DNA from: Candidatus Poribacteria bacterium
GTDB taxonomy: Bacteria > Poribacteria > WGA-4E > WGA-3G
Direction: 5' to 3'
NCBI GenBank assembly: GCA_965205015.1
Contig: OZ242029.1
Span: 2,496,001-2,560,000, forward strand
Length of the DNA: 64,000 nucleotides
A model generated the notes under the pieces. The model ran no database searches. It was given only the letters and a program-made list of their open reading frames with translations, and had not been told where the DNA came from. Positions 20,908 through 28,170 of this stretch are shown here, in pieces; position 1 is the stretch's first letter, and every line of letters starts with the position of its first letter. The translations under genes and the position numbers were made by a program.

Positions 20908-23877
20908 ATGCCGAATCAACGCGAAACAACAATCACGAATGAACTGGTGAACATCCTACGAAACATGCGCCACGGATGGGAGATTGAGACGGAAGTCAAT
21001 GCCTTCATCCGAGGCAACAGCGAACTGGATGCCCTTGTGATTGAGCGCGGACGTGAACCTATCGGCATAGAAGCTAAATTCGCTACCACCACCAATGCCA
21101 AAAACCTCATCAAACAAGCCGAAACACGGTTCGTCTATGAACTTGAAGCAGAATACCATACTTCTCGGAAAACCCTGAACAACGTCATGGCGGTTCTATA
21201 TCCTGATCGTTTTAAAGCGATGCCAGGACGGGACATCAATCCGCAACTTCGCGCAGCAGACGACTTGCAGTACAAACTCATCAGTACCCTCGGGGATATC
21301 ATCGGGCATTTCCCAAAGAACGGATGGGCAACTGGCACCGTGGGAGACATTGCGAATGCGTTACAAGTCGGTGCAATGCCTAATTCCCAACTGGAACAGG
21401 CTGCAGAAGAGATGGAACTGAGTATTGACAGCGCAGCCCATCTACTTGCGGATGCAATCGTTGATCACCGTGCTATCGGCACGAAAATTGAAACGATTCT
21501 TCACCAAGAGGTTTTTTCTAAAGACAAAGACGACGAGGAAGAAAAACTCAACATACAAACCCTCCGTATGGCAGCGCTAATTATCACCGATGCCTTTGTC
21601 TTCCAGAGTTCGCTCGCTGGCAAAGCAAAGATGAAATCCGTTCGTTCCCTCCACCAACTTCTGCCTACGGTTGACTATGCTGATGTTATCGCCGATTGGA
21701 ACACTATCCTCAAAGTCAATTACCGTCCGATCTTTGAGGATGCTCGCGATCTCGTTGAGGCACTCGCTACCGATGACAAGTTAGTTAAACCTATCTTAAC
21801 TCTCCTCTGTGAAGCAGCCAAAGACCTCGTTGATACGGGTATCGCGCAGATTCACGAACTCTCAGGCATCGTTTTCCAAAAACTCATCACCGATAGGAAA
21901 TACGTTAAAGCAAATTACACACTCCCCGAAAGTGCGGTGCTGCTGTCAACACTTGTGCTGCCGAAATTGCCCGAAGGCAAACTGCCGAAAGTGGCAGATT
22001 TCGCGTGTGGGACAGGTGCGCTCCTCAACGGTGTTTACCAACGCATCTTATCTCTATACGAACAGCAAGGTGAAAACGGCAGAGATATCCATCAGAAGAT
22101 GCTTGAAGAAAACATCGGTGGTGCAGACATTATGCCCAATGCAACACACCTCACGGCGGCTGCACTCGCCAGTACCTATGCAGAGTTGAAGATTCGTGGA
22201 ACCAGGATTATTACGGCTCCCTACGGGAGACAGGATAACGGGACTTATGCTATAGGTGCACTCGATTGGCTTGATAACACCCTCGTCTTCAAAGAAATGG
22301 ATACTCAAGCACAACAACTCGGTGGAACAGAGGATGTAACGGTAGAAACACAACATGTGTTCAAACGTGGCGAATTTGATATTGTCGTTCAGAACCCTCC
22401 CTTTACAAAACCGGGCACAGATCAAGGTAGTGACGTACCAAAGACAACATTCCAAGGTAGTGACCGTCCAGAAGAAGATAAGAAAGCGATGCAAGCTGCG
22501 CTGCGAAATAAAGACTCCCGTGTAGCACATGGATTGAGCGGCCTTGTTTCTTACTTTGTCGACCTCGCTGATCGCATGATTAAACACGATGGGATCATGG
22601 GTTTTATCATGCCAGCGACAATTCTAACGTCATCCACCATGCAAAAAGTACGTGACATGCTGGCCACGGAATACCACGGAATCGTGGTGGTTACTATTGC
22701 CGAAGCAAAGACAGAAAATGCAGCATTTTCCGCGGATACTAACATGGCGGAGTGCATTGTGGTAGCCAAGAAAGGGGTGAATGCCGATACAGGACGAGGG
22801 AAATTTGTATGTCTAAACCAACGACCACGGAGTGTCTTAGAAGCGGTGGAAATTGCAAACTATATTAACCAAAACAGCAGCGCGCGACGATTAGAAGATA
22901 CCCCTAATGGTGGCGATATAATCAGAATCGGTGATGACATCGCTGGACAAATGCTAAACTGTCCGCTCTTGCTTGGTGAAGGTTGGGGAGTGTCCCGTGT
23001 ACAATCGATGTCATTGATTCAGTCTGCTTATAGTATACAAAAAGGTATCCTACATCTACCTATGCAAACAACTAATGTTAATGTTCCTATGTGCCGTGTA
23101 GAGGACATAGCACAGGTTGGATGGCATCCGGAAAGTATCTACGGAAGGGATGGTCCCTTTGATATGATTAAAGGAGATGCCAACGGTGATGGGTATCCTT
23201 GTCTGTGGAGTTTGAACAGTGAAACTCAGCGATCAATGCTTGTCAACCCTGATTCGAGGGGAATTCCGCGCAGAAATACAGAGGGTATTCTTTCAAAAAT
23301 CCTTACAAAGAACAGCAGAGCTCACTACAATCTCTACTTACGATTCAATGCTAACTCAACCCTCATCCTCTTAACAGAAAACCCTTCGGTTGGGGTTAAC
23401 AGGTTACCCAACGTGGCATTCGAGGATCCACGGCACGAAATTGCTTTTGCTCTCTGGTGTAACTCAACATTGGGACTGATGTGTCACTGGATACATAGTG
23501 GGAAGCAACAGTCGGGGCGCGGTATTCTAACACTCAATACGTTAGCAACAACGCCGATACTGGATGTCCGAGCACTTTCTGAAACAGCGTTAGCCAACGC
23601 TGAATCGGTCTTTGAACAGTTAAAGTACAAACGCATGCTGCCATTCAACGAATGCGCTCACGACCCTGTCCGACACGAATTGGATACAGGTTTGTTAACG
23701 GAGGTGCTTGGCATCAAGGATCTCGGTGTCCTCACAGCGATGCAGACTTTGCGCGAGATGCTCTGCGCTGAACCGAGCATTCACGGTGGGAAAAAATCTA
23801 AGTGTGATCTTGACGCGGAGTTGGCGAAGCTTAAGTTGAAGGGTATTCCGTTTCCGAATTGGTATAATGATAATTAA
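20908..23877 (+). CDS. Type IIG-like fused restriction endonuclease / N6-adenine methyltransferase
   Basis: N-terminal PD-(D/E)xK-like LDALVI...IEAK; motif I DFACGTGALL; motif IV QNPPF; GFIMP; long C-terminal TRD-like region. Confidence 0.85.
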   Translation: MPNQRETTITNELVNILRNMRHGWEIETEVNAFIRGNSELDALVIERGREPIGIEAKFATTTNAKNLIKQAETRFVYELEAEYHTSRKTLNNVMAVLYPDRFKAMPGRDINPQLRAADDLQYKLISTLGDIIGHFPKNGWATGTVGDIANALQVGAMPNSQLEQAAEEMELSIDSAAHLLADAIVDHRAIGTKIETILHQEVFSKDKDDEEEKLNIQTLRMAALIITDAFVFQSSLAGKAKMKSVRSLHQLLPTVDYADVIADWNTILKVNYRPIFEDARDLVEALATDDKLVKPILTLLCEAAKDLVDTGIAQIHELSGIVFQKLITDRKYVKANYTLPESAVLLSTLVLPKLPEGKLPKVADFACGTGALLNGVYQRILSLYEQQGENGRDIHQKMLEENIGGADIMPNATHLTAAALASTYAELKIRGTRIITAPYGRQDNGTYAIGALDWLDNTLVFKEMDTQAQQLGGTEDVTVETQHVFKRGEFDIVVQNPPFTKPGTDQGSDVPKTTFQGSDRPEEDKKAMQAALRNKDSRVAHGLSGLVSYFVDLADRMIKHDGIMGFIMPATILTSSTMQKVRDMLATEYHGIVVVTIAEAKTENAAFSADTNMAECIVVAKKGVNADTGRGKFVCLNQRPRSVLEAVEIANYINQNSSARRLEDTPNGGDIIRIGDDIAGQMLNCPLLLGEGWGVSRVQSMSLIQSAYSIQKGILHLPMQTTNVNVPMCRVEDIAQVGWHPESIYGRDGPFDMIKGDANGDGYPCLWSLNSETQRSMLVNPDSRGIPRRNTEGILSKILTKNSRAHYNLYLRFNANSTLILLTENPSVGVNRLPNVAFEDPRHEIAFALWCNSTLGLMCHWIHSGKQQSGRGILTLNTLATTPILDVRALSETALANAESVFEQLKYKRMLPFNECAHDPVRHELDTGLLTEVLGIKDLGVLTAMQTLREMLCAEPSIHGGKKSKCDLDAELAKLKLKGIPFPNWYNDN

Positions 23878-24008
23878 GTTCGGGAACTCCCCCTCGGAAA
23901 TTCAGACAGGACAAAGCGAAATGCCTCTGTAACATCATATTTTGATTAGCATATTGACAAGACAAGGATTCCCAATTCAAACTAGGCAAAGGAAAGAAAG
24001 ATAAGTTA

Positions 24009-25589
24009 ATGAGAGTAAAAACTGTAGAATTGATAGGGTTCAAGCGATTCGATCATTTAACTATAGATCTTGGCCCTATCCCCAAAAAGATTGTCGCTAT
24101 GGTTGGTCCGAATGGTTGTGGAAAGAGCTCAGTATTTGACGCTTTTGAATACCAATTGCAGCATTTTCAAAATCACGGAACTGAAGAAGCACATTTTTAT
24201 TTAAGATCGCGTTTTCATGATGATAATCCCCAAAATAAACAGTACCAGATAGAAAAAGTAGACGTAACTTTCGATTCGGGATCACTGAATGAAAAAAGTT
24301 TTTACATTAGAACGCCGTACCGCTTTACTTCTGGCCTCACTATAAATTGGACACAACCCTTTCCTGAGATACTGAGTCGACAAGATAGTCCACCCCGTAG
24401 CACAAATGCTTTAGATCAGCGCCTTGGATTAAACTACACAAAGTTGGTGGCATCTTCAGAGAAAGAGGCCTCTGGAGGGCCAAAGACCGGAAAGCAAATC
24501 CGTACTGAATACATTGACAAGATTAACAATATTCTATCCAATATGATGCTTGATGTGCAAATATCAGATTTAGGCGATCCGTGGGAGGAAAAAACTGGAA
24601 TGTATTGTAAGAAGGGTAACACAATTGACTTTCCGTTTGCCAACCTATCGTCTGGGGAAAAGGAAGTAATTAACATAATTATTGATCTCATCCTCAAATC
24701 AGAAGAGTATACAACAACAGTCTATTGTATTGATGAACCAGAGTTACATTTAAATACAACTATACAGCGGAGGCTTCTCATTGAGATTAATAACCTAATT
24801 CCAGCTAATTGTCAACTTTGGATTGCAACCCATAGCCTCGGATTTATGCGTGCGTTGCAAAATGAACTAAAAGAAGATGCTCAAATCTTAGATTTCTCAG
24901 AGAAGGATTTTATAGGCAGGCATACAATTGAGCCAATGAAACTGAATCGTCAAAACTGGATGAGAATCTTTGAGACTGCCCTTGACGACTTGATAGATTT
25001 GGTAGGTCCGAGTCGAATAGTTTACTGTGAGGGTAGGGCAAAGCCAGGTCCAAACAGAATGGAGAAAGGTTTAGACGCACAAATCTATGAACAGATATTT
25101 TCCATTGCCTTTCCCAACACGGTTTTTGTCTCAAGTGGTGGAAATACTGAACTTGACCAACGAAGTGATATTGCAATAGATATTCTTGGTAAGGTATTCA
25201 ATGAGATAGAGATATGGGTACTCAAAGATCGCGACATGGCATCGGGGAAACCAATCAATGAGTCAGATCGTCAGGAGTACTTAAGCAATAATCCATCTCA
25301 TCATCGTGTTCTCAAGCGTTTTGAATTAGAAAATTACCTTTTTGACAAAGAGGTTCTGTCTAAATACTGTCAATTTAAAGGTCTAACGTTCAGTGAGGTA
25401 GACTATGATAACTTTGTGACGAACATCAACAATCAAAATGTCAAAGACGATATTAATCGAATAAAAAACTTTTGTGGGATCAACACAAGCATCAATGCAG
25501 ACACGTTCAAACTGAATCTCTCAGAATTCATCACGGAGGAAACCGAAGTCTACAAAGAGTTGCGAGAATGTATTTTCTATCGAGCGTAA
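24009..25589 (+). CDS. ABC-type ATPase fused to TOPRIM-like domain (OLD/PARIS-like nuclease)
   Basis: Walker A GPNGCGKSS, LSSGEK, IDEPELHL, ATHS; C-terminal YCEG, SSGG, KDRD, ELENYL. Confidence 0.82.
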   Translation: MRVKTVELIGFKRFDHLTIDLGPIPKKIVAMVGPNGCGKSSVFDAFEYQLQHFQNHGTEEAHFYLRSRFHDDNPQNKQYQIEKVDVTFDSGSLNEKSFYIRTPYRFTSGLTINWTQPFPEILSRQDSPPRSTNALDQRLGLNYTKLVASSEKEASGGPKTGKQIRTEYIDKINNILSNMMLDVQISDLGDPWEEKTGMYCKKGNTIDFPFANLSSGEKEVINIIIDLILKSEEYTTTVYCIDEPELHLNTTIQRRLLIEINNLIPANCQLWIATHSLGFMRALQNELKEDAQILDFSEKDFIGRHTIEPMKLNRQNWMRIFETALDDLIDLVGPSRIVYCEGRAKPGPNRMEKGLDAQIYEQIFSIAFPNTVFVSSGGNTELDQRSDIAIDILGKVFNEIEIWVLKDRDMASGKPINESDRQEYLSNNPSHHRVLKRFELENYLFDKEVLSKYCQFKGLTFSEVDYDNFVTNINNQNVKDDINRIKNFCGINTSINADTFKLNLSEFITEETEVYKELRECIFYRA

Positions 25590-25620
25590 ATAATCGGAAA
25601 GACAATGTGGTTATAGATTC

Positions 25621-25645
25621 GGTGCGGTTAGGAAACCGCACCTAC
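25621..25645. repeat. REP-like hairpin
   Basis: GGTGCGGTTAGGAAACCGCACCTAC; its reverse complement shares the GGTTTCCTAACC core with 12363. Confidence 0.7.
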
Positions 25646-25834
25646 CGGGTCTGCGGTAAGCCTCTTTTTCAATAGCACATGTCGCCCTACGGGACTAAAG
25701 CATGAAGAATTAAATGCACCAACTTGATATTCTTGCTTCAAGCATGTTATAATTTTAGACAATTGGTTTATTTCAAGCTGCAAGCACCTCGAAACCAATC
25801 CTTTTCAAATCCAACTCTTAACGGAGATATTGAC

Positions 25835-26170
25835 ATGCAAATTGAAGATTACTTCAACTTTTTGGCAGAAAATGACATTCGTATTAAGGGAACACGTATA
25901 GGTATTGAAACTGTTCTGGGCGAGTATATTCACGACGGCAAAACAGTAGAGGCAATTGCTGATCGTTACCATACGGTCACACTGGAACAGGTCTACGCTA
26001 CGATCCTATATTATCTGCAAAACCAAGAAAAAGTTGGCGCATATTTGGAAAATTATCTGGAATATTGCCGAACGGCGCGGGAGGAATACGAGAAAAATCC
26101 GCCCCCTGGTGTTATTCGCCTACGTGAACTTATCGCAGAAAGGAAAACTGTTTCTGATAATTCAACCTAA
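25835..26170 (+). CDS. DUF433 antitoxin-like protein
   Basis: IRIKGTRIGIETVL...VTLEQVYATILYY; GGAG RBS before ATG 25835. Confidence 0.85.
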   Translation: MQIEDYFNFLAENDIRIKGTRIGIETVLGEYIHDGKTVEAIADRYHTVTLEQVYATILYYLQNQEKVGAYLENYLEYCRTAREEYEKNPPPGVIRLRELIAERKTVSDNST

Positions 26171-26272
26171 AAATGTCTTGATATCTCAACAGACTTATGG
26201 CATAATTGTTAGAGGTTGATCAATTTCACATTGTGAAAACCGGTCCGAAATTCAGCACAATCGTAGGAGATC

Positions 26273-26896
26273 ATGAGATCAGCTCGCTATACCGATAATG
26301 TTTTCATCAATTGCCCATTTGATTTAATGTATAAGCCATTGTTTGATGCGATGGTGTTTACTGTCCACGATTGCGGTTTCATTGCCCGGTGCGCACTTGA
26401 GGAAGAAGACGCAAGTCAGGTCCGCATTGATAAAATTTACAACATCATTGCGGATTGTCGTTATGGAATTCACGATATATCCAGAACGGAATTAGACGAG
26501 AATTCGGGGTTTCCTCGATTTAACATGCCTCTGGAGCTGGGTATTTTCCTTGGGGCAAAGAAGTTCGGAGTAGCGGATCAGAAAACGAAAAAATGTCTCG
26601 TCTTGGATAAAGAGCCGTATCGGTATCAGCAATTTATCTCGGATATCGCAGGACAAGATATTCAGGCACATAACAACGATGTTGAAATGATTGTGAGAGG
26701 CGTTCGGAACTGGCTCCGCACCGCATCAGGACGGCAGACGATTCCTGGCGGAAACATCATTTGGGAACGTTACCAGACCTTTCTGAGAGATCTGCCTCAA
26801 ACGGCTGAGGAGTATCAATTAGAAGCTGAAGAAATGATTTTCCATGATTACATTTTTGTAATAGGAAAATGGTTAGTAGCTGCAAGAGGGCATTGA
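26273..26896 (+). CDS. Nucleoside 2-deoxyribosyltransferase/TIR-like fold protein
   Basis: VFINCPFD, RIDKIYNIIADCRYGIHDIS, FNMPLELG (N-x-x-x-ELG), SDIAGQDI. Confidence 0.7.
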   Translation: MRSARYTDNVFINCPFDLMYKPLFDAMVFTVHDCGFIARCALEEEDASQVRIDKIYNIIADCRYGIHDISRTELDENSGFPRFNMPLELGIFLGAKKFGVADQKTKKCLVLDKEPYRYQQFISDIAGQDIQAHNNDVEMIVRGVRNWLRTASGRQTIPGGNIIWERYQTFLRDLPQTAEEYQLEAEEMIFHDYIFVIGKWLVAARGH

Positions 26897-26925
26897 TTGA
26901 AGCATAGCTCAAGGAAGTAATCCAC

Positions 26926-28170
26926 ATGGCAAGAGAAAGAACCGTCAAATTCCCCCCCCGCAAACGAGGCGGAAAACTTACAGTCCGTCAGGTTGAACGC
27001 GCAGTGAAAAAGGTCATTCGTGAGCGGCTTGAGTGGGAAGCCTCAGAATCCTATCAGCGTATCTATTCTACGCAATCTACGCTACTACTTGAGGCCATAG
27101 CTGAAACATTGGATATATCTGAAACCCACTATGAATCCGCGGTAAAACGTTACAAAGGGATCCGTGCGTGGTTAGAACGAGATGAATCCAGCGTTGCCCG
27201 TTATAATCCTGAAATTTATCCTCAAGGTTCTTTTGCACTCGGCACGGTTACGAAACCTCTTTCTGATGCCGAAGTGTACGACATAGACTTTGTTTGTGAG
27301 TTGAAACTTCAGAAAACAGAGATCAGTCAAAAGCAACTCGACAAGTTAGTGGGACAAGAAATCAAATCCTATGCACGTACTAATGACATAAATTCTCAAC
27401 CTGAAGAAAGTCGGTATCTTTGGACGCTGAATTATGTCGATGGTGCTCAGTTTCATGTAAATATCTTACCAGCTATTCCGGACGCAGAGTCTTTCAAAGA
27501 ATTTATTGCGTCAAAGGGTTCCGTGCCGTCTGATTGGTCAGATTCCGCGATTGCAATTACAGACAATACGCTTCCCAATTATTGCCGAATTGATGCCGAC
27601 TGGCCACGCAGTAATCCAAAGGGGTACGCAGAATGGTTCCGAAGTCGTATGGACAATGTGCCTGAGTATAAAGTGAAAACCCCACTTCAGCAATCGATCC
27701 AGATATTAAAACGGCACCGCGATATCTGGTTTGATGAAAATCAATCTGCTTACGAGGAAAAGGCGAAACCGATCTCTATCATCATTACAACACTTGCAGC
27801 CCGTGCTTATGATAATCAAGCCGATCTGCAGCAAGCACTAATGAAAATTGTGACGGGAATGCAGGGGCATATTGCGGCTTACAAGACAGGTGTAGTTGTC
27901 CTACCCAATCCGGTAAACTCGCTTGAGAATCTTGCCGAGGAGTGGCAGGAGTATCCCATCCGAAGAGTCTGCTTTGAGGACTGGCTTAAACAGATATACT
28001 CGGACCTGACACAAGCGTTAGCACTAAGTGATATTCAGAGCGTAGCGGAATCGCTCAAACTTTGCTTGGGTGAGCGTGTTATCAGCGATGCATTACGGAA
28101 CGCCTTAGCATCAACAGGAGTCTCAGAAAACCCTATGCACGGTAACTTGAGCCATGAGATTAACCGATAA
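26926..28170 (+). CDS. cGAS/DncV-like nucleotidyltransferase (CD-NTase), atypical
   Basis: LDIS..Y, YPQGSFALGT, YDIDFV, SNPKGYAEWF, TPLQQSIQILKRHRD, PISIIITTLAA, NPVN..EN. Confidence 0.85.
   Translation: MARERTVKFPPRKRGGKLTVRQVERAVKKVIRERLEWEASESYQRIYSTQSTLLLEAIAETLDISETHYESAVKRYKGIRAWLERDESSVARYNPEIYPQGSFALGTVTKPLSDAEVYDIDFVCELKLQKTEISQKQLDKLVGQEIKSYARTNDINSQPEESRYLWTLNYVDGAQFHVNILPAIPDAESFKEFIASKGSVPSDWSDSAIAITDNTLPNYCRIDADWPRSNPKGYAEWFRSRMDNVPEYKVKTPLQQSIQILKRHRDIWFDENQSAYEEKAKPISIIITTLAARAYDNQADLQQALMKIVTGMQGHIAAYKTGVVVLPNPVNSLENLAEEWQEYPIRRVCFEDWLKQIYSDLTQALALSDIQSVAESLKLCLGERVISDALRNALASTGVSENPMHGNLSHEINR

Follow-up and report, generated by a model that had tools for sequence, protein, structure and literature searches.

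A TIR-like gene and its basic partner peptide, fused to a CD-NTase, in a Candidatus Poribacteria defence slot

What does a TIR- or nucleoside 2'-deoxyribosyltransferase (NDT)-like gene do directly upstream of a CD-NTase gene when none of the recognised CBASS effector or ancillary genes is adjacent? Such a pair lies in a 64,000-nucleotide stretch of a Candidatus Poribacteria genome (contig OZ242029.1, positions 2,496,001 to 2,560,000; hereafter, the window), and a sequence-only reading had taken it for either a new minimal signalling or defence system or a recent chimera between two island modules. On our best reading, the locus is not a minimal CBASS, and it is not a recent, isolated case either. 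The features to which we refer are the following, in window coordinates.

20908..26170, plus strand: variable defence slot, the context outside the module, with a type IIG restriction-modification (RM)-like gene, an AAA ATPase and DUF433 (Pfam, PADLOC)
26178..26206, plus strand: candidate sigma-70-like promoter 5' of the TIR-like gene (TTGATA-17-CATAAT with a TG extension; 10/12 matches)
26273..26896, plus strand: TIR/NDT-fold protein, 207 aa, predicted NAD+/nucleotide glycohydrolase (family, model, conserved residues)
26522..26542, plus strand: N84-x-x-x-E88-L-G90 motif, with E88 as the predicted catalytic Glu, aligned with PRxN..FE.G of the CAP12 TIR (7un8)
26926..27045, plus strand: basic partner-peptide module, residues 1-40 of the 414-aa ORF (pattern and profile searches, charge, DNA alignment)
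27046..28170, plus strand: CD-NTase body, clade-G-like, in frame with the peptide and without an AGS-C tail (Pfam, PADLOC, structure matches)
27226..27288, plus strand: G101-S102 and D119-x-D121 of the nucleotidyltransferase motif, intact (alignment)
27460..27462, plus strand: N179 (AAT) replacing the third catalytic Asp, which belongs to HMD in 9woo and to HLD in 8hsb/7ljn (alignment)
27643..27648, plus strand: site of a 16-19-residue deletion, with most of the predicted protease-activation loop gone and the P246-E-Y motif kept (alignment)

The two genes are arranged as originally described, on the plus strand with a 29-bp gap (26273-26896, 207 aa; 26926-28170, 414 aa), and lie in a stretch with a GC content of 38-45% against ~50%. 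A contig from a public run, possibly of the source sample, covers 25885-27774 with no differences, and this match, together with sequence comparison of homologues, ruled out an assembly artefact. The promoter pattern occurred at 8 sites compared to 5.7 expected in shuffles and is thus a weak pointer. Pfam searches of seven ORFs from the region found no match to SAVED, STING, patatin, or Cap2/Cap3, and downstream, as judged by eye, the opposite strand carries LamG-type and dioxygenase-type genes; the sequence-only reading was therefore right that no recognised effector or ancillary gene is adjacent. The flanks of the locus match an orthologous variable slot in other Poribacteria, where relatives carry either the TIR-like gene with a short peptide or the TIR-like gene with a fused CD-NTase, and the same RM-like gene is elsewhere followed by canonical CBASS.

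Several neighbours within the slot deserve mention in their own right. The 989-aa type IIG RM-like gene (20908-23877, plus strand) marks a defence slot in many Poribacteria, and behind it lies canonical CBASS, the TIR-like gene with the peptide, or the peptide alone. A 526-aa AAA_21 ATPase (24009-25589, plus strand) in a 38% GC stretch resembles the PARIS AriA/AriAB and ATPase-Toprim models and is possibly a stand-alone defence gene. The DUF433 gene (25835-26170, plus strand) lacks the ~119-aa ORF that trails its counterpart at locus L003 and is possibly an orphaned toxin-antitoxin half. In public contigs, a short palindromic repeat at 25615-25653 has very high depth and numerous loose ends, which is consistent with an abundant REP-like element.

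The 207-aa protein belongs to a family of 2,853 clusters at 50% identity, for which 7,998 of 7,998 scored candidates passed as members, and its closest relatives, at most 89% identical, are from Candidatus Poribacteria. Ten residues (N13, R51, D68, S70, R82, N84, E88, G90, S123, and D124) were invariant in 82/82 aligned members and in all 25 Poribacteria genes checked; N84, E88, and G90 belong to the N-x-x-x-ELG motif singled out by the sequence-only reading, which is present in the window protein as N84-M-P-L-E88-L-G90. The omega of the Poribacteria genes was 0.15. An AlphaFold model (pLDDT 95.8) has a flavodoxin-like core (~7-156) followed by a helical C-terminal extension of two helices (~160-206). 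The top VIA-align match to this model was the TIR-STING structure 7un8 (Z 11.1, rmsd 3.2, 123 aligned), with which the plant TIR RPS4/RRS1 and MilB (Z 10.8) tied; NDTs scored 9.5-9.9, and ThsB 6lhy (Z 8.1) fell under the other TIRs. Foldseek returned nothing at E<=0.001. By its model, then, the protein has the TIR/NDT fold that had been assigned to it, and the structural Z-scores are tied between TIR and NDT chemistry.

No meaningful family was found for the protein in Pfam, NCBIfam, PADLOC, or PHROGs, and weak matches to Phage_tail_APC, Cas12, and urease were dismissed. The Pfam family of the CAP12 TIR (PF10137) matched 19/82 members weakly (best E 4e-4), and the window protein had no match to it at the gathering cut-off; the family was also found in 16% of the members of one Atlas cluster at 0.85, a lead only. 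The PRxN..E.G motif is common to the TIR-like family and 7un8 (sequence match E 0.38), and neither the window protein nor the other family members had a Pfam match to the NDT family. Sequence evidence thus leans weakly toward a CAP12-type TIR as the closest relative, and we infer cleavage of NAD+ or a related nucleotide, with E88 as the catalytic residue. As the sequence-only reading had noted, it has no apparent sensor: STING, SAVED, and cNMP-binding domains were absent from Pfam and family-library matches and from the model, which has only helices past residue 156. Some family members (P0249, P0311, P0315, P0359, P0372, and P0387) appear by eye to be fused to a classical TIR at the N terminus or to a response regulator at the C terminus.

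The constant partner of the TIR-like gene is a basic peptide of ~35 aa, not a CD-NTase. Recurrent pairing of this family with CD-NTases, which had been raised as a possibility, was not found: a full CD-NTase lay next door (downstream) at only 5 of 79 genome loci, and there was no CD-NTase match at any of 109 non-Poribacteria loci (with flanks of at most 3-6 kb and many short contigs). Ten other loci of the 79 matched residues 1-51 of the 414-aa ORF only. This N-terminal segment is the recurrent neighbour; elsewhere the peptide is a stand-alone ORF of 47-60 aa or is joined to other cargo. A pattern search placed it directly behind the TIR-like gene at 57/79 loci, where it was bare (14), followed by a short tail with an RDAxTG motif (17), or joined to DUF2188-like (10), URI/GIY-YIG-like (7), 410-592-aa unknown (4), or CD-NTase (5) cargo, classes for which Pfam was checked on one or a few examples each. 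Residues 1-35 of the peptide carry a net charge of +10 and the TIR-like protein one of -6. No family for the peptide was found in Pfam, NCBIfam, PADLOC, or PHROGs.

The TIR-like gene was present in 84 of 175 Poribacteria genomes and the peptide in 101 of 175, the latter among the matches listed (150 of 175). A peptide lay within 300 bp downstream of 81/88 full-length TIR-like genes among the matches listed, mostly 45-55 bp from the match end, and three of four examined genes out of the seven without a listed peptide had a weaker peptide match. Solo peptides were common: 51 of the 150 listed had no TIR-like match within 3 kb upstream, and at least 4 of the 36 such loci examined retain TIR fragments. 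The pairing extends across phyla. Outside Poribacteria the gene order flips, with a small basic ORF ending a few bases before the TIR-like start. A profile built solely from Poribacteria peptides had matches at E<=1 at 38 non-Poribacteria loci, every one of them in the upstream interval, which makes up 4.6% of the sequence searched; neither this profile nor its iterated form matched outside it. The iterated profile found the peptide at 66 of the 103 non-Poribacteria loci with >200 nt upstream; 13 further loci had DUF2188 in the upstream position (by Pfam on 30 hand-picked ORFs), and 24 had neither.

Further peptide carriers were observed. At L017:6656-7888, L025:6653-8431, L027:6654-8429, and L053:6663-7973 the peptide is joined to a protein of 410-592 aa, for which Pfam gave no family in the three examined, and the genome search for the peptide found several more frames of ~600 codons that start with it. 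On viral or prophage contigs (L272-L278), small DUF2188 genes without a peptide-motif match precede divergent TIR-like genes.

The original call of the 414-aa ORF as a CD-NTase holds for its cyclase body and had overlooked three features: residues 1-40 are a separate peptide, residue 179 is Asn, and 19 alignment columns are deleted. The ORF matched Pfam SMODS and DncV-like above cut-off and the PADLOC cyclase model at 7.5e-118, and its nearest solved relatives were 9woo (E 6.5e-69) and SmCdnG 8hsb (1e-24). By these matches, rather than by a tree of clades A-H, the body appears closest to clade G. When metagenomes were scanned with the CD-NTase, the 92 pattern matches included no relative. The catalytic triad of DncV is D131/D133/D193 according to the accessible part of PMC5888326, and by alignment and position N179 occupies the site of its third member. 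This substitution would be expected to abolish catalysis, and by it the window cyclase falls short of the catalytic set of CBASS enzymes. Asn at this position was found in 20/63 fused copies, the window's included, and other changes (D121A/Y/T/V, G101S, and S102A) are scattered among fused copies. Across related cyclase sequences, the full set (G-S and three acidic residues) was intact in 36/65 fused copies compared to 56/56 unfused ones, and held-out deviation at conserved columns was 8.7% versus 1.7%. We consider the window cyclase probably inactive; some fused cyclases may be active, because 36/65 retain all catalytic residues.

The 19-column deletion lies past residue 240 of the window ORF. 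The spacing from the WF motif to P246 is 7 residues in 11 fused copies, including the window's, and 23-26 in most others; no unfused copy (0/56) has a spacing so short. In EcCdnG, an activation loop that carries an LPE-Y motif is cleaved by a protease, as described in the accessible text of Hobbs and Kranzusch (PMC12991175), and the deletion appears to fall at the position of this loop, as mapped by the motif rather than on the EcCdnG sequence. A close relative with the loop deletion (P0124) has Asp at the third catalytic position. Despite these losses, the fused cyclases are under purifying selection and are not decaying freely. NG86 dN/dS was 0.14-0.32 in 36/36 pairs of fused genes, the maximum-likelihood omega was 0.32 for 9 fused genes compared to 0.23 for 13 canonical ones, and omega=1 was rejected for the fused genes by 124 lnL units.

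In the window, the partner peptide is in frame with the cyclase, and DNA alignment puts the junction near 27040-27050; a stand-alone peptide occupies the window's slot in four relatives (L001, L004, L005, and L009). This type of CD-NTase occurs in 22 of 175 Poribacteria genomes and the fused form in 8, which excludes a pairing unique to one genome, one part of what would have counted against the sequence-only reading. No stop interrupts any of the eight genomic fusions, which are all full length; each follows a TIR-like gene (truncated in 2/8, with the fusion intact), and none has an adjacent effector. Close CD-NTase homologues numbered 121, 65 with the peptide and 56 without, in protein-database counts that favour intact ORFs and vary with the start called. 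In a tree of 49 of these 121 rows (22 fused and 27 unfused), a single fusion origin was rejected (p-AU 8e-9; at least 5 forced changes). Junction sequences vary between fused groups, 10 of the 22 sampled fused rows form a fused-only clade with long internal divergence, and P0137/P0180, a fused and an unfused copy, are nearly identical. Among fused copies dS exceeds 1, reaching 1.5. The fusion arose repeatedly and is neither recent nor a one-off; of the proposed recent chimera, the chimera stands, and its recency and uniqueness do not. If fused genes have recombined with canonical copies, this could both have broken monophyly and lowered omega. At L113:6959-14768, a canonical CBASS (HTH-IrrE regulator, 644-aa CD-NTase with a SEC-C tail, and HNH-SAVED) lies directly upstream of a TIR-like gene followed by a peptide-fused, D-to-N CD-NTase, so that donor-like and derivative forms stand in tandem.

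Unfused copies sit in canonical CBASS operons: an adjacent patatin or HNH-SAVED-type ORF was found at 13/14 loci (3 confirmed by Pfam, the others by eye; one locus stops at a contig end). The Poribacteria operons among them include SAVED, patatin, AGS-C, SEC-C, and HTH/IrrE-type regulators, and several lie behind the same RM-like gene as the window locus. An effector acting in trans is not generally available to the fused copies. In the genomes of five relatives with the fusion, SAVED was found in two, once as an IS-interrupted remnant, and a close CapV-like patatin in two; neither was found in G002 (5.9 Mb) or G005. The fusion genomes G071 and G170 have other CBASS parts, which an active fused copy could serve in trans. 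The remnant (L140:1495-3064) is a SAVED domain truncated by an IS-like transposase gene, a broken CBASS in a genome with a fused CD-NTase.

We are highly confident of the architecture of the module as described. We think it moderately likely that the TIR-like enzyme and the basic peptide are toxin and antitoxin and that the CD-NTase to which the peptide is here fused derives from CBASS and has lost cyclic nucleotide synthesis. The TIR-like protein would be toxic unless bound by the peptide, whose charge (+10) would let it restrain the acidic enzyme (-6). This toxin-antitoxin logic, drawn from gene adjacency and charge, seems to us somewhat more plausible than not, and neutralisation is favoured because the TIR-like gene rarely occurs without the peptide and the peptide often occurs alone; a partner that is frequently solo and an enzyme that rarely is are the pattern of an orphan antitoxin. 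The peptide would then act as a swappable handle, carrying no cargo, DUF2188, a URI/GIY-YIG-like domain, an unknown protein of ~600 aa, or a CD-NTase. The last would have been taken from neighbouring CBASS operons, losing its effector and here probably its activity while keeping its fold, and the folded body may be kept as a stabiliser or as bait, such that engagement by a phage factor would free the TIR-like enzyme and cause abortive infection. A role as bait is possible and, in our estimate, unlikely. It is also rather unlikely that the whole is an undescribed cross-phylum guard system, in which a TIR-like NADase is held by a peptide handle with interchangeable decoys and the captured cyclase baits phage anti-CBASS proteins or proteases. 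Protease sensing specifically is disfavoured by the loop deletion in the window lineage.

Only the TIR-peptide pair may be functional, with the CD-NTase body an eroding CBASS remnant that is folded only for peptide solubility and refreshed by recombination. We find this doubtful. It would fit the scattered loss of different catalytic residues (D179N as well as D121A/Y/T/V, G101S, and S102A), the relaxed omega of fused copies, the stand-alone peptides at the same locus in L001, L004, L005, and L009, the near identity of P0137 and P0180, and a slot prone to deletion, a hotspot in which the same RM-like gene also precedes canonical CBASS. However, a stop right behind the peptide would release it, and 8/8 genomic fusions are full length without one; low dN/dS in 36/36 fused pairs at dS up to 1.5 and the divergence within the fused-only clade (10/22 rows) also speak against a mere passenger.

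The minimal signalling system originally proposed, in which a cyclic nucleotide made by the fused CD-NTase would activate the adjacent TIR-like protein, perhaps via its helical C-terminal extension, is highly improbable. No CD-NTase accompanies the family at 74/79 genome loci and 109/109 outside, the window copy carries N179 in place of the third catalytic Asp, the TIR-like protein has no STING, SAVED, or cNMP-binding domain, and it is precisely the fused cyclases that lost catalytic residues. These points stand against a closest structure that is the TIR of a CBASS TIR-STING, a TIR-like gene or its remnant beside 8/8 fused genomic copies, a catalytic set kept in 36/65 fused copies, and a loop deletion that, from what is accessible of PMC12991175, could in principle lift auto-inhibition. 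A third alternative, which we regard as improbable, makes the peptide a nucleic-acid-binding regulator or sensor and the TIR/NDT-like enzyme a signal maker or nucleotide processor (Thoeris ThsB-like or MilB/RCL-like) for DUF2188-type or distant effectors, with the fusion incidental. The peptide is indeed very basic, the fold search ranks MilB and NDTs level with TIRs, and DUF2188 recurs as partner or cargo and is a putative effector beside Thoeris TIRs in the accessible part of 10.64898/2025.12.03.692087. Against this, 14/57 Poribacteria loci have the bare peptide and no effector-like domain, and the one-way dependence of the two genes is easier to explain by neutralisation.

With a toxin-antitoxin pair as the preferred reading, the TIR-like gene and its basic peptide are a genuinely new element that the sequence-only reading had not seen. 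A literature search at listing and abstract level found no description of the pair, and earlier surveys may cover the TIR-like family; nor did titles or abstracts on CD-NTase pseudoenzymes or CBASS in Poribacteria report such recruitment. A large TIR-like family with a tiny partner gene is recognised by none of four family libraries, and the toxin-antitoxin prediction is testable. The fused genes are CD-NTases recruited out of CBASS and under selection while catalytic residues disappear, and defence scanners that count cyclases would mis-call such loci as orphan CBASS.

Clade G CBASS (EcCdnG/SmCdnG, with Cap5 HNH-SAVED or CapV patatin effectors) shares a homologous cyclase body with the window. 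A gene with the CD-NTase fold is therefore present, whereas an operonic effector with a recognised sensor (SAVED, STING, patatin, or TM) is absent; the window locus also differs in having no adjacent ancillary gene, an N-terminal peptide, Asn for the third Asp, a loop that is mostly gone, and no AGS-C tail. The TIR-like protein resembles the TIR NADases of CAP12 (TIR-STING) and Pycsar (PF10137) in its best structural match, 7un8, and the common PRxN..E.G motif. It has the TIR fold, which is common to NDT/MilB at tied Z, and the predicted catalytic Glu, but it has a helical tail of ~50 aa where those proteins have a fused STING or cNMP-binding sensor, falls short of the Pfam cut-off, and has a peptide rather than a cyclase as its partner. 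With the NDT/MilB/RCL N-glycosidases, which tie with TIRs in structure, it may share the fold and the position of the catalytic Glu; unlike them, it has no Pfam NDT match and has extra C-terminal helices and a two-gene context.

At the locus there was no PADLOC Ths match to Thoeris, and DUF2188 is the partner at some loci of the family. DUF2188 is predicted to be defence linked in CapH/CapP-regulated operons (Lau et al., 10.1101/2022.04.27.489752) and is also a frequent partner or cargo of the TIR-peptide family; the accessible portion of that paper describes neither the TIR-like family nor the peptide. The closing comparisons are analogies, drawn from features of type II toxin-antitoxin, guard-type anti-phage, and plant NLR decoy systems. 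In contrast to type II toxin-antitoxin and guard modules, neither gene is matched by PADLOC, NCBIfam, Pfam, or PHROGs. The likeness of the locus to them lies in a conserved two-gene operon with a small, labile-looking partner, common orphan partners, and residence in a defence hotspot. The likeness to plant NLR integrated decoys would lie in a variable domain carried on a constant immune module, and under the guard-system reading the interchangeable cargo would be their bacterial counterpart.
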